This document shows positions 2,985 through 63,565 of a stretch of 64,000 bases of DNA, one piece after another. The DNA comes from an uncultured Bacilli bacterium (GTDB taxonomy: Bacteria; Bacillota_I; Bacilli_A; RF39; UBA660): positions 76,172-140,171 of the forward strand of contig CAKOHI010000001.1 in NCBI GenBank assembly GCA_934085585.1, in the 5' to 3' direction. How positions within the stretch are numbered: position 1 is the first letter of the stretch; each line of letters begins with the position of its first letter. The position numbers were made by a program, and so were the translations under genes. Under the pieces are notes generated by a model. The model searched no databases. It was given only the letters and a program-made list of their open reading frames with translations, and had not been told where the DNA came from.

Positions 2985-3013
2985 CAATTAAAAACCACTA
3001 TTTAAAGTGGTTT
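2985..3013 (-). terminator. terminator hairpin at the jag 3' end
   Basis: AAACCACT-ATTTAAA-GTGGTTT stem-loop overlapping the jag stop, with a T-run on the minus strand. Confidence 0.4.
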
Positions 3014-3607
3014 AATAACGATATGTCTGTTTGGTTCTTCCCCTTCACTTTCGGTTTTTACACCTTTAAAGTCTGTTAAAGCATTATGTATTATTCTTCT
3101 TTCATATGAAGTCATATTATCAAGTGCTACAGGAATGTTTGTACTCACTACTTCTTTAGCAGTTTTTTTAGCTAATCTTTCTAATCTTTTTATATTTTTT
3201 TCTTTGTAATTTGATACATCTAGATTAAATTTATAATATATTCCCGTTGTGTTTTGAATATATTGTTTTGCTAATGTTTCTAGGGCTTTTAATGTAGCAC
3301 CTTCCTTACCTATTAAAATATAATCTTTATTTGAATACATTCTAATAGTTACACGATCATCTTTGTTACTCATTTCCATGGTTACTTCAAGTCCCATGTT
3401 TTCTACGACTTTTCTTAAAAATTCTTTAATTTCATTATTGATATCTGTTTTTAAGTATGCTGTTACTTCATAGATTGTACCTTGAAAAAGTTTTCCCTTT
3501 TTAACTGTGCTTGTATAAAGAAATTCTTCTTTTGATAAATTGTTTTCTTCCATTAATGCACTTAACGCTAGTTCAACATCTTTTCCCTCTTTAATTATCT
3601 TTTCCAT
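3002..3607 (-). CDS. khpB: RNA-binding protein Jag/KhpB (KH + R3H domains)
   Basis: Typical Jag architecture and position downstream of yidC; C-terminal R3H-like ERRIIHNALTD... motif. Confidence 0.8.
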   Translation of the reverse strand: MEKIIKEGKDVELALSALMEENNLSKEEFLYTSTVKKGKLFQGTIYEVTAYLKTDINNEIKEFLRKVVENMGLEVTMEMSNKDDRVTIRMYSNKDYILIGKEGATLKALETLAKQYIQNTTGIYYKFNLDVSNYKEKNIKRLERLAKKTAKEVVSTNIPVALDNMTSYERRIIHNALTDFKGVKTESEGEEPNRHIVIKPL

Positions 3608-4631
3608 ACTTCATACCTTCTTTCTTAACTAATTTATCTTTAATTTTATCTTTTTTATTTTTATCTTGTTTTTTATTAGTTAAGTCTTTATTATTAACTT
3701 TATTTATAATAATATTTTGAATCGCTATAAATGCGTATGTTACTATCCAGTAGAATGCTAGTGCTGTTGGTAATGTTAATGACGCATATGTAATCACTAC
3801 GAGCATAACATATAACATTATTTTCATTTGTTTTGCTGCTTCTGGAGATTGTGATCCCGCTTGAGACATTGTTTGTCTAAATGAAAAGTATGTTGATACT
3901 GCAATTAAAACTAGAAGTAATAAATATAGATAATTACCGGTTTTAATACCAACAAGTGGTGTCATACCTAAATTAAATGTTAATAATGATTCTTCATATA
4001 TTGCTGGTGTTCTATAAATTGCTTGTAAGAATGCAAAGAATAGTGGTAATTGGATAAATGCCATGAGACACCCTACCATTGGATTTACCTTATATTTTTT
4101 ATAAACCATTATTGTTTCTTGACTTTTAGCCATTAATGATTCATTATCTGTTCTATTACGATATTTTCTTTCTATTTTTTCTATTTCAGGTTGAGCTTTT
4201 TTCATATTCATTGTTTGATTTGTACTTTTAATTGTAAATGGTAATAATACTAATCTTATAGCTAAACCTATTAATATTAATGATATACCTAGATTACCTA
4301 CGAGATTACCTAAAACTAATATTAAATATGCTAAAGGTTTAACAAATAAAAATTCCCATAATCCAGTTGATTCATTTGATGTTATTTTAAAATCTTCGCA
4401 AGCTGGTAAATCTTCAAAATCAATATTTAATTGATCACTATATTCTTTATATATATTATATAGTTCACTATCTTTTTCTGGTAAACACAAAATATCTTTT
4501 TCAAGCATTTGACCTGTTTCTTCATATGTAACTATTTTTTTATCTTTATCTTGTATATATTTGCTATTTCCACATCCACTAGTAAGTAATAATACAAATA
4601 CTAATAGAATTGCCATTATCTTTTTTTTCAT
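3591..4631 (-). CDS. yidC: membrane protein insertase YidC/OxaA family (lipoprotein)
   Basis: Lipobox LLTSGC at the N-terminus and multi-TM 60-kDa inner-membrane-protein core; conserved rnpA-yidC-jag order. Confidence 0.85.
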   Translation of the reverse strand: MKKKIMAILLVFVLLLTSGCGNSKYIQDKDKKIVTYEETGQMLEKDILCLPEKDSELYNIYKEYSDQLNIDFEDLPACEDFKITSNESTGLWEFLFVKPLAYLILVLGNLVGNLGISLILIGLAIRLVLLPFTIKSTNQTMNMKKAQPEIEKIERKYRNRTDNESLMAKSQETIMVYKKYKVNPMVGCLMAFIQLPLFFAFLQAIYRTPAIYEESLLTFNLGMTPLVGIKTGNYLYLLLLVLIAVSTYFSFRQTMSQAGSQSPEAAKQMKIMLYVMLVVITYASLTLPTALAFYWIVTYAFIAIQNIIINKVNNKDLTNKKQDKNKKDKIKDKLVKKEGMKYGKDN

Positions 4632-17133: not shown

Positions 17134-17139
17134 GTAAAC

Positions 17140-17218
17140 GTGCAACAAATATGCTGTAAATTGGTCAGGATTGGAAAATAGCAGCCACATCAGCCTATGT
17201 TTGTGTGCACTTTTTTTT
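17140..17218 (+). ncRNA. ffs: signal recognition particle RNA (4.5S/small SRP RNA)
   Basis: Domain IV motif GGTCAGGATTGGAAAATAGCAGCC (compare E. coli GGUCAGGUCCGGAAGGAAGCAGCC); terminal helix GUGCAACAAAUAUGCUG paired with CAGCCUAUGUUUGUGUGCAC; U-run; consensus promoter upstream. Confidence 0.75.
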
Positions 17219-17228
17219 GGAGGAAATT

Positions 17229-27064: not shown

Positions 27065-27265
27065 AGTTTAACAAAGAAGGAAAGAGTAGGTATCATTCGT
27101 TTCATAGAGATTTCTTGGTTGGTGGAAAAGAAAAAATGAAGATATACGAACATGGCTCTGGAGTTAAAATCGGGTAATTACGTTATAAATTTTAAGTTGC
27201 ATGATAAATCATGAATTAAGGTGGTACCGCGGGTTATACTCGTCCTTAGTTTGTGATTTTTTTTT
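27065..27265 (+). promoter_or_regulatory. T-box riboswitch leader (probable Met specifier) controlling dut-metG
   Basis: Conserved T-box sequence AATTAAGGTGGTACCGCGG at 27214-27232, an upstream AGAGTA GA-motif region, and terminator-like pairing ending in a U9 run at 27257-27265. Confidence 0.6.
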
Positions 27266-27275
27266 GGAGGTAAAT

Positions 27276-27773
27276 ATGAGAAAGTTTGAAAAAATAAGTT
27301 ATCCTGAATTTGTTAAAGTTTTTGGAGATAATAAAACTTTGTATGATGATTATATGCTCCCTTTAAGAGGGACAAAGTGTAGTGCAGGTTATGATTTTTT
27401 TGCTATAAAAGATTATGTTATAAAACCAAATGAAATTTTAAAAATACCAACTGGTTATAAAGCTACATTTGAAAGTGATGAAATGCTAATGCTTGTTGTA
27501 AGAAGTAGTATGGGTTTCAAATATAATGTTAGACTTACAAATCAAGTGGGAATAATTGAAAGTGATTATTATAATAATCCTGATAATGAAGGGCATATGT
27601 GGATTTGTCTTCAAAATCATGGAGATAAAGAATATATAATTAATAAGGGAGATGCTTATGCTCAAGGGATATTTGTTAAATTTTTAACAACAGATGATGA
27701 TTGTGTTAATAAAACAAGAATTGGTGGGCTAGGCAGTACAAATAAAAAGAAAGAAGGAAATGAAAATGAATAA
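27276..27773 (+). CDS. dut: dUTP diphosphatase (YncF-type dUTPase family)
   Basis: dUTPase motifs SAGYDF, VVRSSMG, GIIESDY and the C-terminal RIGGLGSTN; GGAGG RBS; the ORF-track start lies upstream inside the leader. Confidence 0.7.
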   Translation: MRKFEKISYPEFVKVFGDNKTLYDDYMLPLRGTKCSAGYDFFAIKDYVIKPNEILKIPTGYKATFESDEMLMLVVRSSMGFKYNVRLTNQVGIIESDYYNNPDNEGHMWICLQNHGDKEYIINKGDAYAQGIFVKFLTTDDDCVNKTRIGGLGSTNKKKEGNENE

Positions 27774-30422: not shown

Positions 30423-31883
30423 ATGAAAAAAAATATTTTGTTAGTTGGGCTATTATTATTAGTTGTATTCATGCCAAATAAAGTGTTTGCATTAAGTAAT
30501 GATGAGATTATTAATATAATAGCTACAGATGGAAAAAATGCGGTATTTAAAATGAAACAACCTACTAGTGAAAAAGAAGCAAAGGTAAATTTAAACAATT
30601 ATGTTAATTATGTGTTACAGAATTATGGATATTTTGCAGATATAATATGTGATAGTGAAACATATTCTAAATGTGATTTAAATATTTATAGTAGTGATTA
30701 TGAATCATCTTATGATGTAAATCTTAAAGATTATGTAACTAAAAAGGGATGGACAAGTAAGTATGCTATTAATGTAACTTATGATGCACCGAAAGAAAAT
30801 GCAAATATTAATAAAATTGTAGAAAATATTACTGGCCTTCCTGAAGAGTGGGATAGGAATGATGTTCCTAAATATTATATTTTATCGGATTTATCCTTGA
30901 TAAATTATCATTATAATTATTCAAAATATTTATATAATTTTGGATCTACTAAAATAGCATTTAAATATAGTTCTTTAAATAACTTTCTTTATGGAACTAA
31001 TATAGAAGTTTATTTGGATCTTGTTACTGGAGAAGATGATTCAGAAAATATGATAAGTTTTGGATTTGGGCCGATGAGCATATTTTATGATGGATACTTA
31101 TATGCCACAAAAAACGAAGGTATTTATTTAAGGAGATTATTATATATTCCAGAAGATACTCCGGATACACCGGAAGATTATGTGAAAGCTGCACAAAAGA
31201 GAATTAATGATTATTTAAAAAATGATTTTGTTAAAGTTACATATGGAGGTAAAATTGCTGATATAAGACCTAATGAAGAAGATGCTTATATACCAATAGA
31301 AACCGATGGAAATTATTATGATTTTCAATTTGGAGATAATCATTTTATGTTTTATATTGTAAAAGGAAATGCTGAACAATTAAAAGCGCCTGTATATTTA
31401 AGTAGTGATATAAATACAAATATAGAAGTTGAAACAAATGATTCATCAGTGCCTTTAGATACAATAATTAAAGTGAAAGATGTTACTTCCGAATTTACAA
31501 AGGAAATGATTGGAACAGAAAACTTTGTATCTTATGATATAAAATTATATTCTAATAGTTTAGCAGCACACGTTGAAAAGCTTGATTCAGGAACATTTGT
31601 TGTAAAAATACCTATACCTGAAATGTTAAATGGTAAAAAATTAATTGTTTATTATTTTGACGAGGATAATAATAAAATATCATATGATGTTACAATAAAA
31701 AATGGGTTTGCTGAATTTAATACTAATCATTTTAGTGTTTATACTTTAGCTGAATACGAAGATAATGTTAATGAAGTCATAGAAAATCCTTCTACATCAG
31801 ATAGTGTAATGTTGTATTTTTCTTTAAGTTTATTAAGTGTGGTAGGAATGGTTATTGTTTCAAAAAAAATAATTAATAAATAA
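30423..31883 (+). CDS. secreted/cell-surface protein with signal peptide and C-terminal membrane anchor (486 aa)
   Basis: Signal peptide MKKNILLVGLLLLVVFMPNKVFA; C-terminal hydrophobic segment followed by basic KKIINK; no LPXTG motif. Confidence 0.6.
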   Translation: MKKNILLVGLLLLVVFMPNKVFALSNDEIINIIATDGKNAVFKMKQPTSEKEAKVNLNNYVNYVLQNYGYFADIICDSETYSKCDLNIYSSDYESSYDVNLKDYVTKKGWTSKYAINVTYDAPKENANINKIVENITGLPEEWDRNDVPKYYILSDLSLINYHYNYSKYLYNFGSTKIAFKYSSLNNFLYGTNIEVYLDLVTGEDDSENMISFGFGPMSIFYDGYLYATKNEGIYLRRLLYIPEDTPDTPEDYVKAAQKRINDYLKNDFVKVTYGGKIADIRPNEEDAYIPIETDGNYYDFQFGDNHFMFYIVKGNAEQLKAPVYLSSDINTNIEVETNDSSVPLDTIIKVKDVTSEFTKEMIGTENFVSYDIKLYSNSLAAHVEKLDSGTFVVKIPIPEMLNGKKLIVYYFDEDNNKISYDVTIKNGFAEFNTNHFSVYTLAEYEDNVNEVIENPSTSDSVMLYFSLSLLSVVGMVIVSKKIINK

Positions 31884-41673: not shown

Positions 41674-43161
41674 ATGAAAAGAAAGTATATTGTGATTTTA
41701 GGATTGGTGTTAGTAACTTTAATGTTATCAACAATATTATTTAAAAACAAAGTATTATTAGATGATTATAACCAATTTGGTAAGAATGATAATACGATGT
41801 TATCGATGATGCTTGAAACAGATGATGGTAGTGGAGAATATAAAGCTACAACAATGAGTTCTTGGCCAACAGATGGATATACATTTAATAAAGAATTATC
41901 AAGATGTGAAAATGGCGGAGAGTTATCATGGGATGATACAAAGAAAATTGTTATCATGAGTGGTAATGTTTCTGATAAATGTTATGTTTATTTTGATGTA
42001 AATACTGTAAAGCCTTTAATTGATTATGTAAAGTCAAAATATACTGGTGTACAGGGAGATAATAGTTTGTATTATCATGATTCTAGTCTAACTAATGGAA
42101 TTAATGATAATTCATACAGATATGTAGGAAGTGATTATCTTTTAACAGATGTTGGAAAAGCAACAGGTGCAACAATGTTAGTTGGTTATGATGCAACTGC
42201 TACGACAGCATTAATAGATTTTTATTGTAATGGAACAAAATCGTATGTTGGTTATGCTTGTGCAAGTTCATATTCTCATTATTATTTAGTAAAGGGAGAT
42301 ACAACACAATATCAAACTTATAATGAAACTCTGAATGTTGCTTTAACTAAGGGTTATATTACTAAAGATAATGTTAAAAATTTTGTATGTTTTGGAACTG
42401 ATGCCACTACCTGTCCAATAGATAATTTATATCGCATCATCGGAGTAATAGATGAAAAGGTGAAATTAATAAAATGGGATTATGCAAAAGCTAGTTTACT
42501 TGGTACTAATGGTGATTATGCACGGGAATATTCTTATAGTTATTTTAGTGGAGAACGAGGGGAAAGTCCAGCTAGTAATGCAACTTATTATTGGAATAAT
42601 ACAACAAAAACAAATACATGGAGTGAAAGTAATTTAAATAAAGTTAATTTAAATACTAACTATTTAAATAATATTGGAACTGAGTGGGCGAATAAAATAG
42701 TCACAACAACGTGGAAAGTCGGAGGTAATACATTTAGCAATATTGCAAATGTTACTCCGTCGTCATCATATAAAAATGAGATAAAATCTCCGGCGGCATC
42801 AACAACGTATAGTGCCAAAATAGGATTAATGTATGTAAGTGAATATTTGTATTCTGCAAATCCATCTTATTGGATGTATATAGTTAGCACTTCATATAAT
42901 GATGGAACTCCATCAAACGACTATAGAGCTACGAAGGGAGATAATTGGTTATACGGAGGCAGTTGGGAAGGAATGATTACACGGGTTTCTGATGATACCA
43001 CGCTAGCTTTTTATATAGATTATAATGGGTTTGTGGGTAATAATAGTGTATCTATTGCTCCGAATAGTGGTAAAGGAATTAGGCCTACATTTAATTTAGA
43101 TACTTCAGTAAATTATACAGGTGGTACAGGAACTATGGATGATCCAATCCGCATAAATTAA
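41674..43161 (+). CDS. secreted/membrane-anchored Cys-containing protein, unknown function (495 aa)
   Basis: N-terminal signal anchor MKRKYIVILGLVLVTLMLSTILF; Cys pairs; Ser/Thr/Asn/Tyr/Gly-rich extracellular-type composition. Confidence 0.55.
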   Translation: MKRKYIVILGLVLVTLMLSTILFKNKVLLDDYNQFGKNDNTMLSMMLETDDGSGEYKATTMSSWPTDGYTFNKELSRCENGGELSWDDTKKIVIMSGNVSDKCYVYFDVNTVKPLIDYVKSKYTGVQGDNSLYYHDSSLTNGINDNSYRYVGSDYLLTDVGKATGATMLVGYDATATTALIDFYCNGTKSYVGYACASSYSHYYLVKGDTTQYQTYNETLNVALTKGYITKDNVKNFVCFGTDATTCPIDNLYRIIGVIDEKVKLIKWDYAKASLLGTNGDYAREYSYSYFSGERGESPASNATYYWNNTTKTNTWSESNLNKVNLNTNYLNNIGTEWANKIVTTTWKVGGNTFSNIANVTPSSSYKNEIKSPAASTTYSAKIGLMYVSEYLYSANPSYWMYIVSTSYNDGTPSNDYRATKGDNWLYGGSWEGMITRVSDDTTLAFYIDYNGFVGNNSVSIAPNSGKGIRPTFNLDTSVNYTGGTGTMDDPIRIN

Positions 43162-52053: not shown

Positions 52054-52528
52054 TATACAACCTGATAGCATATTAGATGGTAGTGGAATTAGAACTGTTA
52101 TATGGTTTCAAGGTTGTTTACATAATTGTAAAGGTTGTCAAAATCCTGAAACACATGATTTAAATGGTGGTATTGTTTTTGATGTTGATGAAATAAAGAA
52201 AAAACTTAAAAAATTGAAATATCAAAGCGGTATTACTTTATCTGGTGGAGATCCTTTTTTTCAACCAGATGCTGCCTTGGAAATAGCTAAATTTGCTAAA
52301 GAAATTGGATTAAATATTTGGGCTTATACGGGTTTTACATATGAAGCTTTACTTAATGGCGATAAAAAAAGATTGGAATTACTAAAGCTGGTAGATGTAT
52401 TAGTTGATGGCAAATTTATAATGGATAAAAAAAGTTTAAACTGTAAATTTAGAGGAAGTACAAATCAAAGATTAATTGATGTAAAGAAAAGTTTGGAAAA
52501 TGGTGGTGTGGTTTTATATGATGTTTGA
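52031..52528 (+). CDS. nrdG: anaerobic ribonucleoside-triphosphate reductase activating protein (radical SAM)
   Basis: DGSGIRTVIWFQGCLHNCKGCQNPET motif (CxxxCxxC cluster). Confidence 0.8.
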   Translation: MVVRLAADIQPDSILDGSGIRTVIWFQGCLHNCKGCQNPETHDLNGGIVFDVDEIKKKLKKLKYQSGITLSGGDPFFQPDAALEIAKFAKEIGLNIWAYTGFTYEALLNGDKKRLELLKLVDVLVDGKFIMDKKSLNCKFRGSTNQRLIDVKKSLENGGVVLYDV

Positions 52529-52994
52529 TGAAGGTGTTAATTATACAATACTTGCTAATAATGCAGATAAGGTTTTTATGTCAAAACTGGGAAGTTTTCC
52601 AATTATTGAAGGAGACTTTAGTTATGAAAAATTAAAAGAAAAATTAGAAATGTTTCCGAATAAAAGATTAATTTTTAAAAATAGTTTGTATGGATTAAAA
52701 AAAGAAGAAAAAAAAGACATTATAAATTTATTAGCTAAACAAAATATTAATTTTGTAAATGTTACTTGTGATGTAGAAGAATCAATATTAAGTGATTATA
52801 TAGTTGTTTATGATGAAGATAAAAAAGTATTAGAAGGAAATATGGAATCAGTATTAAGAAATGAAAAAGTGTTAAAAAAATTAGGTTTTGGTGTTCCTTT
52901 TGTAGTTGATTTATCAATACAACTTAATTATTATGATGTTTTAAAAAGAGTTTATTTTGATTTAGATGAATTAGTAGGTGTTTTATGGAATTAA
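52518..52994 (+). CDS. degenerate EcfA-like protein lacking Walker motifs (about 158 aa)
   Basis: C-terminal segment VLEGNMESVLRNEKVLKKLGFGVPFVVDLSIQL resembles the EcfA C-terminal tail; no P-loop present. Confidence 0.4.
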   Translation: MMFDEGVNYTILANNADKVFMSKLGSFPIIEGDFSYEKLKEKLEMFPNKRLIFKNSLYGLKKEEKKDIINLLAKQNINFVNVTCDVEESILSDYIVVYDEDKKVLEGNMESVLRNEKVLKKLGFGVPFVVDLSIQLNYYDVLKRVYFDLDELVGVLWN

Positions 52995-53527
52995 AGGGAA
53001 GTATTATTGGTATTGTAAGCAATGATTATATAGAAGAAGGATTAAAGGGAACGGTTAAGGATATAGTTCTAAAAAAAAGTAGTGATGCTTTAAAGATGGT
53101 GGGACTTGATGATTCATATTTAGATAAAGATTTTAGTGATTTATCAGATAGAGATAAGAATAAAATTATTTTAGCAAGTAAGTTACAAAATAAAGAAATA
53201 AAATTAATAAATTTTAGTAAAGGGTTAACTAATAAAGATATTGAATTTTTTAAAAAATTATTTAAAAAAATTGTTAGTTATGGAAGAAAAATTATTTTAG
53301 TTGATAAAAATAGTAATATGTTTATGAATTGTGTTGATAACTTATATGTTATTAACAAAGAAATAATTTTAGAAACAGATGATTTATATAATGAGGAATT
53401 AAAAAAATATATAGATGTTCCAAGTATTGTTGAATTTACACATAAATCTTTAGAAAATGGAATTAAGTTAAATCATTATAATGATTTAGATGATTTGTTG
53501 AAAGCTATTTATAGGATTAAATCATGA
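52985..53527 (+). CDS. degenerate ABC/EcfA-like pseudo-ATPase (180 aa)
   Basis: A degenerate Walker-A-like segment GSIIGIVSNDYIEEG and an LSDRDKNKIILASKL segment where the ABC signature (LSGGQ) would be expected; located where ecfA1-ecfA2-ecfT normally precede truA. Confidence 0.45.
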   Translation: MELKGSIIGIVSNDYIEEGLKGTVKDIVLKKSSDALKMVGLDDSYLDKDFSDLSDRDKNKIILASKLQNKEIKLINFSKGLTNKDIEFFKKLFKKIVSYGRKIILVDKNSNMFMNCVDNLYVINKEIILETDDLYNEELKKYIDVPSIVEFTHKSLENGIKLNHYNDLDDLLKAIYRIKS

Positions 53528-56475: not shown

Positions 56476-56497
56476 CCACGGGTTTCCGTGGTTTTTC
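56476..56497 (+). terminator. rho-independent terminator after rpsI
   Basis: CCACGG-GTTT-CCGTGG hairpin followed by T5. Confidence 0.6.
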
Positions 56498-56627
56498 TTT
56501 GTAAAAAATGTAAAGTTTTTTATTTGCAATATTGTATATACTAAAATAAAATGATAGAATAAATTTATAGATAATAGCTAGTGAAAAGTTTATTTATTGA
56601 CTAGCTTTTAATTAAGTAGGTGATATT

Positions 56628-58643
56628 ATGAAATTTTTAAAAGAAAAAAAAGGATTTTCTTTAACAGAGTTGATCGCTGTTTTAGTAATTTTGTCTATTT
56701 TAATAACTTTAGGGGTTGCCATATATATGAATACTAGAAATAGTGTTTTAAATAAGTCATATGAAAATTTAAAAACTTATTTAGAAGCAAAAGCTATTGA
56801 GTATGCAAATGAAACTAGTATCACTACGATTAGTGTTGAAGATTTAATTAAAAATGGATATGTTATACCTGATGATCAAACTGATATTTATAATCCAATT
56901 AATAGAGAAAGTATGAATTGCTTTATTATAAAATCTAAATTAGTTGATGGAGAATATATTGCTGAATTATCTGAAAATTTGGATCGTAATAGTGAAGGTA
57001 AATGTAATGAATATACTCAAACAAGTGATTTCCAAATTTGTAGATTTGATGAAGAAAAAAATGAATGTTTAGATATTGATGAAAATTATTGGTTTAATGA
57101 TAATATATTCTTGGGAGTTAAGAAAATTAATGTTGATTTGACTAATGCAAAATATAGTTGGAGTAATAATATGGGATTTTCTGATGATAAAGAAATAATT
57201 AAAACTAATGTTGTATCAGTAAGTAGTAGTATTTATAAATGCGAGATAGTTTTGTCAAATAATGAGAATGGTGTAGCTACAAAGAAAATCCAAATAGATA
57301 AAGAACCACCACAAATTAAAGAAATCATTTTTGATAAAAATGTAAGTACCAAAAAAATTGTAGAGATTATTGCTAGTGATGGTACTGGTTCTGGTATAGG
57401 TGGATATAAAATTGTTAAAAATGGAGAAGCTTGTGAAGGTACTTTTGAAAAAGATAATAAAATATCTGTAACTGAAAAAGGTAATTATACAGTTTGTGTA
57501 AAAGATAAAGCGGGTAATGTAGCAAAAAAAGAAAATATAGATATTACTTCGATTGATAATACACAAATAAAAATAACATCTAAAGGCTCTGATACGATTT
57601 TTGTTGGAGTTAACAATGAAACAATATCTTATTTTAATGTAGAATACCCTGATAGTGGTGGTTATGTGATTTGTGATCCTGAAACCACTGGAAAATTAAA
57701 GGTTGGCAAACATACCCTTAAATGTACTGCTTATGGGAATAATGGTACAAAAGCAGAAGCTACAAGTGAATTGACAGTAAAATCTAGAATTCCTTCAACT
57801 CCTAAAATTGTAGCAAAATATGAAAATAGAAATGGTGCTGTATATACTGGTGCTTTAACTAATAAATCAATATTTGTTAGTTTTGAACCGGGAGAAGAAA
57901 CGGATCTTGTTACTAACTATTATTATAAGTATGGAAATGGTTCTTGGCAAAGTCCTAGTTGGATTTCTATGAATAATAGTGTTGGAACTTTTACTTATAC
58001 TACTGATATTGATAAAACGGTTTATATTAAAGCTTGTTATAAGGATGAAAGTGGTGAGAAATGTAGTGCCTCTTCTTCTGGTCAAGTTTTAAGAATTGAT
58101 AAAACATCACCGACATGTAAATTATCTGTTGGAAGTACAGTTTCAATAGGAACTAAATCATCTGATGTAGCTAAATATGGCGTTTCTAGAAGCTCTACGG
58201 TAAGTTATGGTACTTCAAGTTTAAGTACAAGTACAGGTACATTTTATGGATATGTTATAGATAACGCTGGTAATACTGGAAACTGTAGTGCATCTGTAAC
58301 TAGTACAACTAAAGTTGAAATAAATAGTACGTGTTCGGAGGATTGCAGTAAAACTGAACCAGTATGTAAGTATGTTTGTTATAGATATATGACAGATGAA
58401 GAAAAGAAAAAGAATAAATGTAATGGAACTGCATTAGAACCAAGTTATGGTACTTGTTGGAGGTGGAGTTCAACATCAAATTGTACATCCCCACTTCCGT
58501 ATCGTGATACATCACCAAATGCTACACAATGTCAATCAGTAAACGTTCCAAGTACCTGTGATGTTCCATGTGTTAAAACTAGCTATACATGTTCTAGTGG
58601 TTACTCAAAAGCTAATAATAGTTATTGCTATAAATTAAGTTAA
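56628..58643 (+). CDS. large type IV pilin-like / competence pseudopilin-like protein (671 aa) with Cys-rich C-terminus
   Basis: Class III prepilin leader and N-methylation motif KKGFSLTELIAVLVILSILITLGVAIY (G|FSLTE); large Ig-like, Thr/Ser-rich extracellular region; C-terminal segment with more than 20 Cys. Confidence 0.65.
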   Translation: MKFLKEKKGFSLTELIAVLVILSILITLGVAIYMNTRNSVLNKSYENLKTYLEAKAIEYANETSITTISVEDLIKNGYVIPDDQTDIYNPINRESMNCFIIKSKLVDGEYIAELSENLDRNSEGKCNEYTQTSDFQICRFDEEKNECLDIDENYWFNDNIFLGVKKINVDLTNAKYSWSNNMGFSDDKEIIKTNVVSVSSSIYKCEIVLSNNENGVATKKIQIDKEPPQIKEIIFDKNVSTKKIVEIIASDGTGSGIGGYKIVKNGEACEGTFEKDNKISVTEKGNYTVCVKDKAGNVAKKENIDITSIDNTQIKITSKGSDTIFVGVNNETISYFNVEYPDSGGYVICDPETTGKLKVGKHTLKCTAYGNNGTKAEATSELTVKSRIPSTPKIVAKYENRNGAVYTGALTNKSIFVSFEPGEETDLVTNYYYKYGNGSWQSPSWISMNNSVGTFTYTTDIDKTVYIKACYKDESGEKCSASSSGQVLRIDKTSPTCKLSVGSTVSIGTKSSDVAKYGVSRSSTVSYGTSSLSTSTGTFYGYVIDNAGNTGNCSASVTSTTKVEINSTCSEDCSKTEPVCKYVCYRYMTDEEKKKNKCNGTALEPSYGTCWRWSSTSNCTSPLPYRDTSPNATQCQSVNVPSTCDVPCVKTSYTCSSGYSKANNSYCYKLS

Positions 58644-58756
58644 ATTAATTCAAGGTATAATCCTTGGATTTTTTTAAAATTTACTTGATAGCTAAAAAAA
58701 CGTGTGTTACAATATGGTTGTTTTATATTTTAATATCATTAATAAGTGAGGTATAT

Positions 58757-59623
58757 ATGAGAATTAGCAATGAATGGAAAGATTATGAATGTATAAATGC
58801 TGGAGATGGGGAAAAATTAGAACGATGGGGAGAAGTTATTTTAAGACGTCCTGAACCTTTAGCAATGTGGCCAATAGAAAAAGATAAATCATGGAATATG
58901 GTAGATGGTATTTATTATAGATTTAAAGATGGCGGTGGTCATTGGGAATTTAGAAAAAAATTACCTGATTATTGGACAGTTAATTATAAAGATTTAAAGT
59001 TTAAAGTAAGTCCTACCAATTTTAAACATACTGGACTTTTTCCCGAACAAGCTGTTAATTGGGATTTTATGATGAATAAAATAAAAAATGCTAATAGACC
59101 TATTAAAGTACTAAATTTGTTTGCCTATACAGGTGGTGCTACGATCGCATGTAGTAAAGCTGGTGCTTCTTTGGTGGTTCATGTTGATGCTGCTAAAGGT
59201 ATGGTTGAGTGGGCAAAAGAAAATGCTAAATTATCTGGAGTTGAAGATAATTATATTAGATTTTTAGTTGATGATTGTTTAAAATTTGTAGAAAGAGAAA
59301 TTAGAAGAGGAAATAAGTACGATGCAATTGTAATGGATCCTCCGAGTTATGGAAGAGGACCTAATGGAGAAGTTTGGAAGTTAGAACATAATCTTTTGGA
59401 ATTGGTGAGTAGATGCGTATTGCTTTTAAGTGATAAACCATTATTTTTCCTAATTAATGCTTATACCACTGGGGTTTCTAGTACAGTACTTTATAATATT
59501 TTAAAACTTACAGTTGGTGCTTCATATGGTGGCAATATTGATGCTGGTGAAATTGGACTTCCAATAAGTAATAATGATCTAGTTTTACCATGTGGAATTT
59601 ATGGAAGATGGCAAGATGAATAA
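58757..59623 (+). CDS. class I SAM-dependent rRNA methyltransferase (RlmI/RlmK-like, no PUA domain)
   Basis: SAM-binding motif LNLFAYTGGATIA and catalytic motif DAIVMDPPSYGRG; GTGAGG RBS; ORF-track start trimmed. Confidence 0.7.
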   Translation: MRISNEWKDYECINAGDGEKLERWGEVILRRPEPLAMWPIEKDKSWNMVDGIYYRFKDGGGHWEFRKKLPDYWTVNYKDLKFKVSPTNFKHTGLFPEQAVNWDFMMNKIKNANRPIKVLNLFAYTGGATIACSKAGASLVVHVDAAKGMVEWAKENAKLSGVEDNYIRFLVDDCLKFVEREIRRGNKYDAIVMDPPSYGRGPNGEVWKLEHNLLELVSRCVLLLSDKPLFFLINAYTTGVSSTVLYNILKLTVGASYGGNIDAGEIGLPISNNDLVLPCGIYGRWQDE

Positions 59624-61891: not shown

Positions 61892-63565
61892 GTGATTACT
61901 TTGCATAAAAATATAGAAGAACTAAATAGAATTTTGGATGAACTATTATTAAATCCAGAAAATGAATGTGTAGAATTTAAAAAGGCAAAAAATAGTTTCG
62001 ATATGGATGTATTAGGTAAATATTTTTCCGCTTTGGGTAATGAAGCAAATTTAAAAAATAAGCAATATTCTTGGATAATTTTGGGTATTGATGACAAATC
62101 ACATGAATTAACTGGTACTAATTATTTTAATGATAATAATTTTAATAAAGTGAAGAAACAAATTTCTGATAATACAACTGATAATATAGGTTTTATTGAA
62201 ATATATGAGTTTAAGAAAAATAATAAAAGAGTTATTATGTTTCAGGTTCCTGCTGCTTCTGGTACACCAATTAATTGGAAAGGGTTTCCATATGGAAGAA
62301 ATGGCGAATCCATCGTTCCATTAACTTTAAATAAAATTGAACAAATTAAATCAACTGCTAATTGTGATTGGTCTAGACAAGTAATTGATGAAGCCACAAT
62401 AACTAATTTGGATAAAGAAGCAATTGAAGTTGCTAGGCAACAGTTTAAAATAAAACATAAAGGTAAAAATATAGCACTTGAGATAGACAGTTTATCTGAT
62501 ATAGATTTTTTAAATAAAGTAAAATTAACATTGAATAGTAAAATTACTATGGCTTGTATGTTGCTTTTGGGTAAAAATGCTGATGATTATTTAATGAATG
62601 GTTATACACCAAAGTTGACTTGGAAACTTTATGATGAATTTAATGTTGTTGATTATGAACATTTTGGTATACCATTTATTATTAATGTGGAAAAATTAAA
62701 ATCAAAAATACGAAATTTAAGGTATAGATATATGGTTAATGATAATTCTTTGTTTCCAAATGAAGTAGATCAATACGATAACTATATTCTCCGAGAGTTA
62801 ATAAATAATTGTATTGTACATCAAGATTATAGATTACATGGCAATGTAAATGTTATGGAGTATAAGGATAAGTTAATAATAACTAATGAAGGTAATTTTA
62901 TTCCTGAAACGATAGAAAATGTTTTAAAAGACGGTTTTTCATCGCCATATTACAGAAATCAGTTTTTAGCTAATGCTATGGTTAATTTAAATATGATTGA
63001 TACTGTTGGTAGTGGAATAAAAAGAGTTTATGATATTCAGAAGAAAAAGTTTTTTCCGTTGCCTGATTATGATTTAAGTAAGCCTAGTCGTGTTAAAGTT
63101 ACTTTGTATGGAAAGGTAATAGATGAAAAATATAGTAAGATATTATTTGAAAAAACTAATTTGGATATAGATAAAGTAATGTTGTTAGATAGAGTACAAA
63201 AAGGATTTGAAATTACAAAAGAACAAAGTGATTATTTAAGAAAAGACAATTTAATTGAAGGAAGATATCCTTACATTTATATTTCGTCTGATATTGCAAA
63301 AATAACAAATAAAGAAAAGGATTATATTGATAATAAAGGTTTAAACAATACATATTATAAAGATTATATTTTAACATATATTGAAAAGTTTGGAAAAGCT
63401 ACAAGGGAAGATATTAATAATTTGATTTACCCTAAATTGCCAATAAATATGAGTGATAAAAATAAAAATAATAGGGTTAGATATATTATATCTCAATTGA
63501 AAAAAGAAAATAAAATAGAAAATCAAGGTTCGTTAACAAAATCCTCTTGGGTTAAAAAAAAATAA
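61892..63565 (+). CDS. AlbA_2 (Schlafen-like divergent AAA) domain protein with RecG-C-terminal-like/HATPase_c_4 region; putative DNA-binding regulator (about 555 aa)
   Basis: N-terminal E.ECVEFKKAK...LGKYFSALGNEANL pattern typical of AlbA_2 domain proteins; TTG at 61901 is a possible alternative start. Confidence 0.45.
   Translation: MITLHKNIEELNRILDELLLNPENECVEFKKAKNSFDMDVLGKYFSALGNEANLKNKQYSWIILGIDDKSHELTGTNYFNDNNFNKVKKQISDNTTDNIGFIEIYEFKKNNKRVIMFQVPAASGTPINWKGFPYGRNGESIVPLTLNKIEQIKSTANCDWSRQVIDEATITNLDKEAIEVARQQFKIKHKGKNIALEIDSLSDIDFLNKVKLTLNSKITMACMLLLGKNADDYLMNGYTPKLTWKLYDEFNVVDYEHFGIPFIINVEKLKSKIRNLRYRYMVNDNSLFPNEVDQYDNYILRELINNCIVHQDYRLHGNVNVMEYKDKLIITNEGNFIPETIENVLKDGFSSPYYRNQFLANAMVNLNMIDTVGSGIKRVYDIQKKKFFPLPDYDLSKPSRVKVTLYGKVIDEKYSKILFEKTNLDIDKVMLLDRVQKGFEITKEQSDYLRKDNLIEGRYPYIYISSDIAKITNKEKDYIDNKGLNNTYYKDYILTYIEKFGKATREDINNLIYPKLPINMSDKNKNNRVRYIISQLKKENKIENQGSLTKSSWVKKK

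Follow-up and report, generated by a model that had tools for sequence, protein, structure and literature searches.

The 64,000-nucleotide stretch of DNA analyzed here (hereafter the window), part of contig CAKOHI010000001.1 from an uncultured Bacilli bacterium, carries at positions 56,628–58,643 an open reading frame (ORF) for a 671-residue protein that begins like a type IV prepilin and ends in a cysteine-rich module. A first reading of the DNA (the original prediction) had described it as a giant type IV pilin-like protein sited alone between the rplM-rpsI operon and rRNA-modification genes, and we confirmed these neighbors: rplM-rpsI lies on one side, and genes for an rlmI-like methyltransferase and an rluA-like pseudouridine synthase lie on the other. 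The window is an origin-proximal segment, with a GC content of 26%, of a spore-forming Firmicute (dnaA, dnaN, gyrB/A, spoVG, a spoVT-like gene, yabP/Q, gerQ and whiA). Because the giant pilin gene is flanked by terminator-like hairpins and preceded by a promoter-like site, it looks like a separate transcription unit; three terminator-like sites were seen in the region against 0.6 expected from shuffled sequences, while promoter-like matches in the AT-rich DNA around the gene are not enriched relative to shuffles. The features of the locus, with the AlphaFold2 (AF2) models and their predicted local distance difference test scores (pLDDT) described below, are as follows.

56476..56491, forward strand: terminator-like hairpin at the end of the rplM-rpsI unit, CCACGGGTTTCCGTGG and then a T-run
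56524..56552, forward strand: promoter-like site, TTGCAA and TAAAAT separated by 17 nt (consensus match alone)
56618-56623, forward strand: likely ribosome-binding site, AGGTGA, by sequence
56628..58643, forward strand: coding sequence of the 671-residue putative modular prepilin, with an ATG start and the stop codon at 58641-58643
56628..56654, forward strand: leader peptide MKFLKEKKG, residues 1–9, with Gly-1 at its end (motif, PF07963, TIGR02532)
56644-56651, forward strand: A8 tract within the leader codons
56655..56816, forward strand: alpha1 helix of the pilin module, residues 10–63, with Phe+1 and Glu+5 (PF07963, TIGR02532, AF2 helix 12–63)
56817..57089, forward strand: small globular head, residues 64–154, with conserved C98, C126, C138 and C147, its first part ComGC-like (AF2, conserved columns)
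57055..57061, forward strand: A7 tract, codons ~143–145
57090..57305, forward strand: PKD-like beta-sandwich, residues 155–226, ending in the conserved IDKEPP linker (Foldseek, conserved columns)
57306..58109, forward strand: three Ig/FN3-like domains, residues 227–311, 312–386 and 387–494 (all-beta in AF2, pLDDT ~85–94)
58090..58790, forward strand: recombination block of ~700 bp with sharp borders (DNA identity between strains L135 and L136)
58110..58343, forward strand: HYR-like Ig domain, residues 495–572, bracketed by C497 and C553 (weak PF02494 HYR match), with the start of the exchanged cassette inside it
58344..58640, forward strand: Cys-rich tip module, residues 573–671, with 12 Cys, ending in YTCSSGYSKANNSYCYKLS (alignment, AF2)
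58647..58670, forward strand: terminator-like hairpin right after the stop codon (hairpin search)
58664..59623, forward strand: annotated methyltransferase ORF, the next gene (ORF call)

The ORF is real and constrained. When residues 1–494 were compared with close-strain orthologues, the ratio of nonsynonymous to synonymous substitution rates (dN/dS) was 0.0–0.5 in 11 of 12 domain comparisons, at a dS of ~0.1; in the exception, the Ig-like domain at residues 227–311 compared with L053, a dN/dS of ~1 has little meaning at a dS of just 0.02. The identical protein is encoded between the same neighbors on 14 gut-metagenome contigs. One orthologue (L054, 5001–5483) has six adenines in place of the A7 tract and is frameshifted, which could be the result of either slipped-strand phase switching or an assembly error. 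An Rfam search revealed no RNA element near the giant pilin gene. Nor did we find signs of a phage origin: a tblastn search of 50,697 phage records produced no matches, and the neighbors are housekeeping genes.

The N terminus contains a canonical site for cleavage and N-methylation by a prepilin peptidase, as had been predicted. A charged leader ends in Gly at position –1 and is followed by Phe at +1, Glu at +5 and a stretch of about 20 hydrophobic residues (MKFLKEKKG followed by FSLTELIAVLVILSILI; longer extract, MKFLKEKKG followed by FSLTELIAVLVILSILITLGVAIY), which makes it a class III signal peptide, and both applicable models score above their cut-offs (PF07963, 22.3 bits against 21.2; TIGR02532, 25.9 bits against 16.3). 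The predicted mature protein has 662 residues, bearing out the ~650 originally expected. Its sole hydrophobic segment spans residues 7–37, and none begins after about residue 19. We also considered, and rejected, a sortase-assembled Gram-positive pilin, as the 671-residue protein has neither an LPXTG-like motif nor a C-terminal hydrophobic tail that could serve as an anchor.

Across 23 diverse homologues (alignment A2), F10, L12 and E14 (F+1, L+3 and E+5) are invariant, which would not be expected for a plain membrane anchor. The NF040999 model for ComGC aligns to residues 7–90 over 82 of its 84 profile positions (32.8 bits, E-value 5.8e-8; cut-off 75); judged by sequence, alpha1 behaves as a ComGC-type helix, although the protein falls outside the ComGC family. 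The original prediction had not noted this likeness. When the PDB was searched with the family profile, matches were confined to the alpha1-N segments of Geopilin, MshA and PilE1. We used AF2 to model the full protein from a 33-sequence alignment (mean pLDDT 81) and, separately, residues 1–225 (pLDDT 83). Both models contain a 52-residue helix (12–63), a short helix (70–75) and four short strands within residues 99–148 (99–106, 109–117, 135–141 and 146–148), and this predicted order of helix, then strands, corresponds to what a small pilin module would show.

The pilin module (residues 1–154) is followed by the PKD-like domain, four Ig-like domains and the Cys-rich tip, and the protein thus has the composition of a modular pilin, defined as an N-terminal pilin module to which one or more further modules, structural or functional, are fused (Raynaud et al. 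2021, PMC8179133). Foldseek matched the PKD-like domain to the PKD domains of collagenase and PrtV (target TM-scores 0.57–0.65, E ~1e-3), and W155, W178 and Y203 in this domain are invariant in the family alignment. For the full model, the matches were proteins with consecutive Ig/FN3 domains, among them GhpA (1.7e-11), contactins, SbsB and a large adhesin repeat. Pfam gave weak matches to BiPBP_C and Big_13 on the stalk and nothing stronger, and no domain signature other than the N-terminal motif was recognized by Pfam or NCBIfam. The unit at residues 495–572 is present as four to eight repeats in proteins of 1000–1200 residues.

The whole protein contains 25 cysteines. Although the original prediction had placed more than 20 of them in the C-terminal 300 residues, in CxxC/CxC-type spacing, we counted 16 in that segment; the protein has three CxxxC motifs (at 569, 580 and 644) and neither CxxC nor CxC. 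The same segment had correctly been called Ser/Thr-rich (Ser plus Thr account for 29% of the last 300 residues versus 15% of the first 371). Ten cysteine columns of the tip are invariant across alleles and related species or genera and two more are mostly conserved, and the loops between them vary. In the model of the C-terminal part, which had been proposed as a check, AF2 confidence in the tip is low at residues 576–641 and high in the terminal hairpin (650–670). A search with residues 495–671 against 1.84 billion representative proteins yielded 49 matches at E ≤ 1e-3, about 12 of which span the whole tip. Two of the latter, P0280, with a prepilin N terminus and a Listeria-Bacteroides repeat, and P0302, with a plain hydrophobic N terminus and a glycine-rich domain, both end in a tip of the window type (...C..GYTKLNxSYCYK); since these differently built proteins end in the same module, the tip behaves as a portable module.

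The C-terminal tip, together with its 3' flank, forms a cassette that recombines and exists as two old types of allele, a property that the original prediction had overlooked. Among 12 alleles of the window's species-level group, residues 1–494 are 96–100% identical, whereas over the last ~177 residues two types can be told apart, with only 56–66% identity between them: type A (the window, L132 and L135) and type B (the nine others, including P0470 on the 1.2-Mb contig ERZ28658488 scaffold_1). Within the HYR-like domain, identity to close strains falls to 73%. Strains L135 and L136 do not differ in the N-terminal part of the protein (100% identity) yet reach only 57% identity in its C-terminal part, and their DNA is 98–100% identical up to ~58087, 85–88% identical in the next stretch, ~50% identical at 58327–58555 and 100% identical from ~58794. 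Because identity drops and recovers so sharply, we conclude that a block of ~700 bp was replaced, comprising the end of the stalk, the tip, the terminator, the spacer and the first ~130 bp of the methyltransferase ORF. In the tip, dS is 0.7–0.8 as compared to ~0.1 elsewhere (a 6–8 fold difference), and dN is raised as well. This argues for the import of old alleles rather than for fast local mutation. The window tip is 56–60% identical to tips from other species or genera (P0004, P0007 and L011_7326), a value like that for type B of its own species, and a genome of another species or genus (L011) carries type A and type B tips on two tandem paralogues. The two tip types predate the species.

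To place the protein in its family, we searched 5.8 billion protein clusters and scored 8000 candidates, of which at least 605 are homologue clusters at E ≤ 1e-3, none of them named. A scan of one genome per GTDB species identified 37 loci, mostly in records titled uncultured gut Bacilli or 'Tenericutes' metagenome-assembled genomes (MAGs), with host titles such as Firmicutes bacterium CAG:460, Clostridium sp. CAG:609, UMGS686, UMGS910, Candidatus Onthocola, and Hadza and animal MAGs. Agathobacter, Muribaculaceae and Clostridia appear in a few record titles; both Clostridia matches are weak and involve the Ig domains only. Since the best match in this set is only 49% identical, the window's species seems to have no representative there. 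A metagenome scan added 55 loci, the named ones being from human gut, and the window's RplM sequence is indexed in 2608 blocks of the metagenome collection. Literature searches on pili in RFN20 and on CAG-460 returned nothing useful.

These loci encode 96 different complete large pilin-like proteins, with mature lengths of 376–1210 residues (median 729) and a median of 24 cysteines. The first ~310 residues, which include the IDKEPP, ASDGxGSG and KDKAGN motifs, are well conserved across the family. Beyond this point the proteins are built of modules, with insertion or repetition of Ig domains and C-terminal ends of at least six unrelated types. The number of copies at the rpsI site also varies, with two in tandem in CAG:460 (664 and 803 residues), four in another strain (664, 896, 285 and 803 residues) and one in the window, so that the protein stands alone, as originally described, in the window's genome but not in relatives with two to four tandem paralogues at the same site. 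Paralogues are 76–78% identical over their first ~320 residues. In the related genome L137 (ERZ28615023 scaffold_350, 3001–4410), which encodes an RpsI identical to that of the window, there is no giant pilin, the methyltransferase gene directly follows rpsI, and a Mob_Pre gene is nearby; the pilin gene is thus an accessory insertion at the rpsI site.

Smaller proteins are encoded beside some members of the family. A 285-residue protein lies between tandem giant pilins (L046, 12706–13563) and is present in 11 loci as well (e.g., L073, 7405–8259); it has a plain hydrophobic N terminus and no Gly-Phe...Glu motif, is weakly homologous to the head of the pilins and to their first Ig domain, and looks like a pilin-like relative that lost its prepilin site. 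In a distant branch of the family, a gene for a small protein of 160–200 residues with an N-terminal membrane anchor lies directly 3' of each giant pilin gene. One such partner, of 186 residues, accompanies 'YxYWxYxITIxYY' tips (8 of 10; L021–L026, L029, L031–L033, L035, L037 and L098), and another, of 176 residues, accompanies 'CxCC..W.G.G.C' tips (6 of 6; L015, L019, L025, L028, L032, L033 and L035). Neither partner type belongs to a Pfam family, and the tip class of the window never has one.

We then looked for the machinery that would assemble such a pilin. Neither a motif search nor tblastn detected PilB, PilC, PilD or comG genes in the 64-kb window, in agreement with the earlier statement that no pilus assembly genes are adjacent. 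Only one locus, L042, from a Bacilli MAG, links machinery and a giant pilin on the same contig, and it does so with a distant relative: genes for a PilC-like platform protein, PilD, PilB and two small pilins lie ~3 kb upstream of that for a pilin-like protein of >1940 residues, to which the family profile matches in the N-terminal 186 residues (i-E 4.8e-7) and in Ig domains. Besides L042, the scans found machinery only in loci that were anchored on PilB. PilB proteins of the L042 kind are common, with >120 protein clusters at 69–87% identity, and where they lie on gut contigs of 26–27% GC the same small gene cluster is found beside ylbJ- and ylbL-like genes. In L049, genes for PilC-PilD, PilB and two pilins are located near sigA-dnaG and mutS; in L107 and L112–L121, which have sporulation genes nearby, the genes for PilB and two pilins sit between holA and rpsT with gpr and spoIIM as neighbors, and PilC and PilD are not adjacent. 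The pilin genes of the PilB clusters encode two proteins of 147–173 residues, one of which has grown to 421 residues in L107 (L107, 8122–9895; L112, 8981–9901; L049, 8886–9913). According to NCBIfam, the ATPase and platform proteins are GspE/PilB-like and GspF/PilC-like, not ComGA/ComGB-like, and the small pilins of L042, L049 and L107 are weakly similar to the minor pilins ComGE, ComGD and ComGF, those of L049 and L107 to ComGE. None of the machinery clusters scored (L042, L049 and L107) encodes a ComGC-like major pilin, and neither PilT nor PilMNO was seen next to the machinery clusters.

Attempts to connect these clusters with close relatives of the window gene gave same-sample evidence only: a contig with PilB (L109) and one with giant pilins (L046) come from sample ERZ27287511. 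The metagenome-collection scan for giant pilins did not match PilB contig Ga0334897_000005; the pilin-bearing contigs of 1.14–1.2 Mb that were reached via the window's RplM and RpsI are absent from the PilB listings; no link came from the RpsT encoded beside PilB in the L112 species, since this exact sequence is missing from the window-like species' 1.2-Mb contig; and a tblastx comparison of the PilB loci with all other loci found no shared region.

We read the protein, with a probability of roughly 0.6, as a modular type IV pilin with an Ig-like stalk and a swappable tip that combines pilin function with the role of an adhesin, and for which machinery is seen only in other gut Bacilli. It is probably a pilus-displayed polymorphic adhesin. 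The original proposal of a large minor pilin acting as a tip adhesin therefore stays the best reading, and it fits the modular-pilin concept (PMC8179133). Real pilin function is favored over a mere anchor because Phe+1 and Glu+5 are invariant, alpha1 is ComGC-like and machinery is present in similar organisms, and adhesion is suggested because the stalk is adhesin-like and the tip is polymorphic and surface-exposed.

In this mechanism, a prepilin peptidase of the PilD type would cleave after Gly9 and methylate Phe10, and a PilB/PilC-type machine encoded elsewhere would insert alpha1 into a type IV filament, most likely at the filament tip or in low abundance because the C-terminal extension is bulky. 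The rigid-looking stalk would keep the tip away from the filament and the cell wall, and the tip would bind an external ligand, for example host mucus, a glycan or another cell. Balancing or diversifying pressure, whether from ligand range, host antibody or phage, may maintain the alternative tips in the population.

Several results weigh against reading the protein as a pilus-displayed adhesin. (i) Motif and tblastn scans of the window and 106 loci found PilB, PilC or PilD in none of the roughly 100 giant-pilin loci save L042, no longest contig was shared between the PilB listings and the giant-pilin listings, and a close relative and PilB on one contig were not obtained. (ii) The similarity to ComGC is below the family cut-off (32.8 versus 75 bits). 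(iii) Foldseek with the model of residues 1–225 retrieved PKD domains alone and no pilin structures, so that the pilin fold of the head comes solely from the AF2 secondary structure. (iv) Although the –1 residue is Gly in 76 of the 96 large pilin-like proteins, it is Ala in the other 20, for example in all CAG:460-type paralogues (KKA/FTLTE), which is unusual for PilD substrates. (v) The tip has no detectable relative of known function, and 25 cysteines in a secreted protein of a gut anaerobe call for an oxidising or metal-binding explanation.

Some of these points would suit an unpolymerised surface adhesin, an unlikely reading but the one that best survives among the alternatives, in which the prepilin-like N terminus, cleaved or not, is only a membrane anchor or at most a short pseudopilus stub, and the five beta domains of the stalk suffice to cross the wall and display the tip. 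Such a protein would be comparable to the binding proteins with class III signal peptides in archaeal 'bindosomes'. It would account for assembly genes that are not nearby and for the Ala at –1 in 20 of 96 relatives, and five beta domains are in principle long enough. Furthermore, the same stalk repeats or tip are found on plain hydrophobic N termini in P0264, P0270, P0302 and the 285-residue protein of L046, and because relatives carry them in this way, display on a filament is not obligatory for the stalk and tip modules. However, the strict Phe+1 and Glu+5 and the ComGC-like alpha1 are hard to explain for a simple anchor, and machinery and minor-pilin genes exist in similar organisms, in one of which they adjoin a distant relative.

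Since no major pilin was seen in the machinery clusters, another possible role for the giant pilins is that of the main, ComGC-type subunit. The filament would then be a co-polymer of paralogues whose pilin modules are nearly identical, their stalks radiating from the fibre as in a 'bottle-brush'. We consider this improbable. It is consistent with the clusters of L042, L049 and L107, which carry small minor-like pilins only and no ComGC-like gene, with the giant pilin being the best ComGC match of all pilins seen, and with the identity of paralogues in their first ~320 residues, and a motif scan of ORFs of at least 40 residues, covering the window plus the first 45 loci, detected no small pilin of the major type beyond the machinery cluster of L042. 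But these scans covered loci rather than whole genomes, and a small major pilin may lie elsewhere in the genome; a single copy in the window's species, and none at the site in L137, would be odd for an essential structural subunit; and to our knowledge there is no filament built wholly of ~660-residue pilin subunits. A fuller version, in which such a fibre would bear interchangeable Cys-knot-like tips, as alleles or paralogues and in some cases paired with a membrane protein, and so form a polymorphic, filament-borne recognition system, is a speculative and rather unlikely proposal.

A role in DNA capture, as a component of a competence (Com) pilus, is very improbable, although the original prediction had mentioned DNA receptors. 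The ComGC-like N-terminal ~90 residues are compatible with it, with no further specific support, as is a minimal machinery of ATPase, platform, peptidase and a few pilins. However, the ATPase and platform proteins score far better as GspE/PilB and GspF/PilC than as ComGA and ComGB, no DNA-binding domain or signature was detected in the tip, and allelic tip swaps and paralogues with unrelated tips suit variable ligands rather than DNA. Hardly credible, finally, is a polymorphic contact-dependent effector, in which the N terminus delivers a toxic variable C terminus against which a cognate protein protects: although the N terminus is conserved and the C terminus is swapped as a cassette, and two tip classes of the distant branch have a small membrane protein of their own, the window gene and its whole tip class have no partner (the next gene, past a terminator, is a housekeeping methyltransferase), the tip is a small disulfide-type scaffold with no catalytic signature and no toxin family in Pfam or NCBIfam, and the partners are predicted to be extracytoplasmic and of no known family. 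A polymorphic toxin system was accordingly rejected, there being no immunity gene downstream and no match to a toxin family.

Large modular pilins as such are already known. A survey of modular pilins listed >1200 proteins in 264 architectures, the largest having 860 residues (PMC8179133), whereas members of the present family reach 1210 mature residues and the distant relative >1940 residues. The family also stands apart by the multi-domain stalk, the 12-Cys tip, the site away from the machinery, the tandem arrays and the exchange of tips. The closest parallels in design include PilB (pilin plus vWA) and PilC (pilin plus lectin) of Streptococcus sanguinis, which likewise have a class III signal peptide, a small pilin module and a C-terminal graft, belong to a monoderm host, and show a predicted ligand-binding function on the filament (PMC8179133). 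Unlike them, the window protein has a five-domain stalk and a Cys-rich tip with no Pfam or InterPro signature, is not encoded in a pil operon, and has tips that are swapped between strains. CofB and TcpB are also large minor pilins in which additional beta domains are joined to the pilin module, and CofB has been proposed to be located at the filament tip and to mediate binding (PMC8179133). There is, however, no sequence or fold match to these two, which are diderm type IVb pilins encoded in a pilus operon and have neither a Cys-rich tip nor cassette exchange.

The likeness to ComGC, the major pilin of the Com pilus of monoderms, covers the leader, alpha1 and the short segment that follows, but ComGC has ~100 residues and no extension, and the window gene lacks the context of a comG operon. 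In Neisseria, gene conversion between pilE and pilS preserves the conserved N-terminal assembly part and replaces the variable, exposed C terminus by recombination. The window gene is similar in that recombination replaces the variable C-terminal part and leaves the N terminus in place; it differs in that the variation is found between strains and paralogues, that no silent cassettes were found near it, and that the exchanged unit is a module plus the downstream spacer. The predicted extended Ig-like stalk resembles those of its best Foldseek matches, the GhpA grappling hook (9flp/9flw), the adhesin repeat 6xi3, SiiE (2yn5) and SbsB (4aq1), although only at the level of the fold, with 10–14% identity; these proteins are secreted or anchored in other ways, and none has a prepilin N terminus.

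The hosts of this family, MAGs of the CAG:460, CAG:609 and related types with genomes of ~1.1–1.2 Mb, are uncultured and common in human gut metagenomes. The giant pilins are a candidate main adhesin of these gut Bacilli, which have no known surface biology. They would extend the modular-pilin idea to subunits that are very large, multi-domain and polymorphic and whose genes lie apart from those of the machinery. Identical backbones with alternative tips constitute a natural experiment that points to the ligand-binding part, and the tip may represent a new small scaffold, a framework of 12 cysteines with hypervariable loops and no known relatives. Even should it prove to be no more than an ordinary minor pilin adhesin, >600 unnamed protein clusters would still gain a label.

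A 495-residue membrane protein of the window (41674..43161) has an N-terminal membrane anchor and no Pfam family and ends in GTGTMDDPIRIN; its relatives at the syntenic site range from 379 to 500 residues through internal deletions. Since its end motif is like that of one tip class, we considered a connection to the giant pilins, and dropped it as phmmer found no similarity. A 486-residue protein (30423–31883), also with no Pfam family, has a signal peptide and a C-terminal hydrophobic tail and is probably a surface protein.

Between an nrdG-like radical SAM gene and truA (52500–53527) lie ORFs of 164 and 180 residues that have no recorded Pfam match and are conserved in relatives; the second contains a degenerate ABC-signature-like stretch, read by eye. 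Many Firmicutes carry ecfA1-ecfA2-ecfT at this position. Downstream of the giant pilin gene, positions 61892–63565 encode a protein with Schlafen/AlbA_2 and HATPase_c_4 domains, and an Abi_2 protein is encoded further downstream (L001, 18171–19106); because the Schlafen gene is absent from CAG:460-type loci, this appears to be a variable, defence-like spot. The only Rfam matches in the window are a small signal recognition particle RNA (17134–17219, 54.7 bits) and a T-box leader upstream of the metG region (27065–27250, 106 bits). As the T-box overlaps the ORF listed at 27201..27773, the real start of this ORF is probably further downstream.

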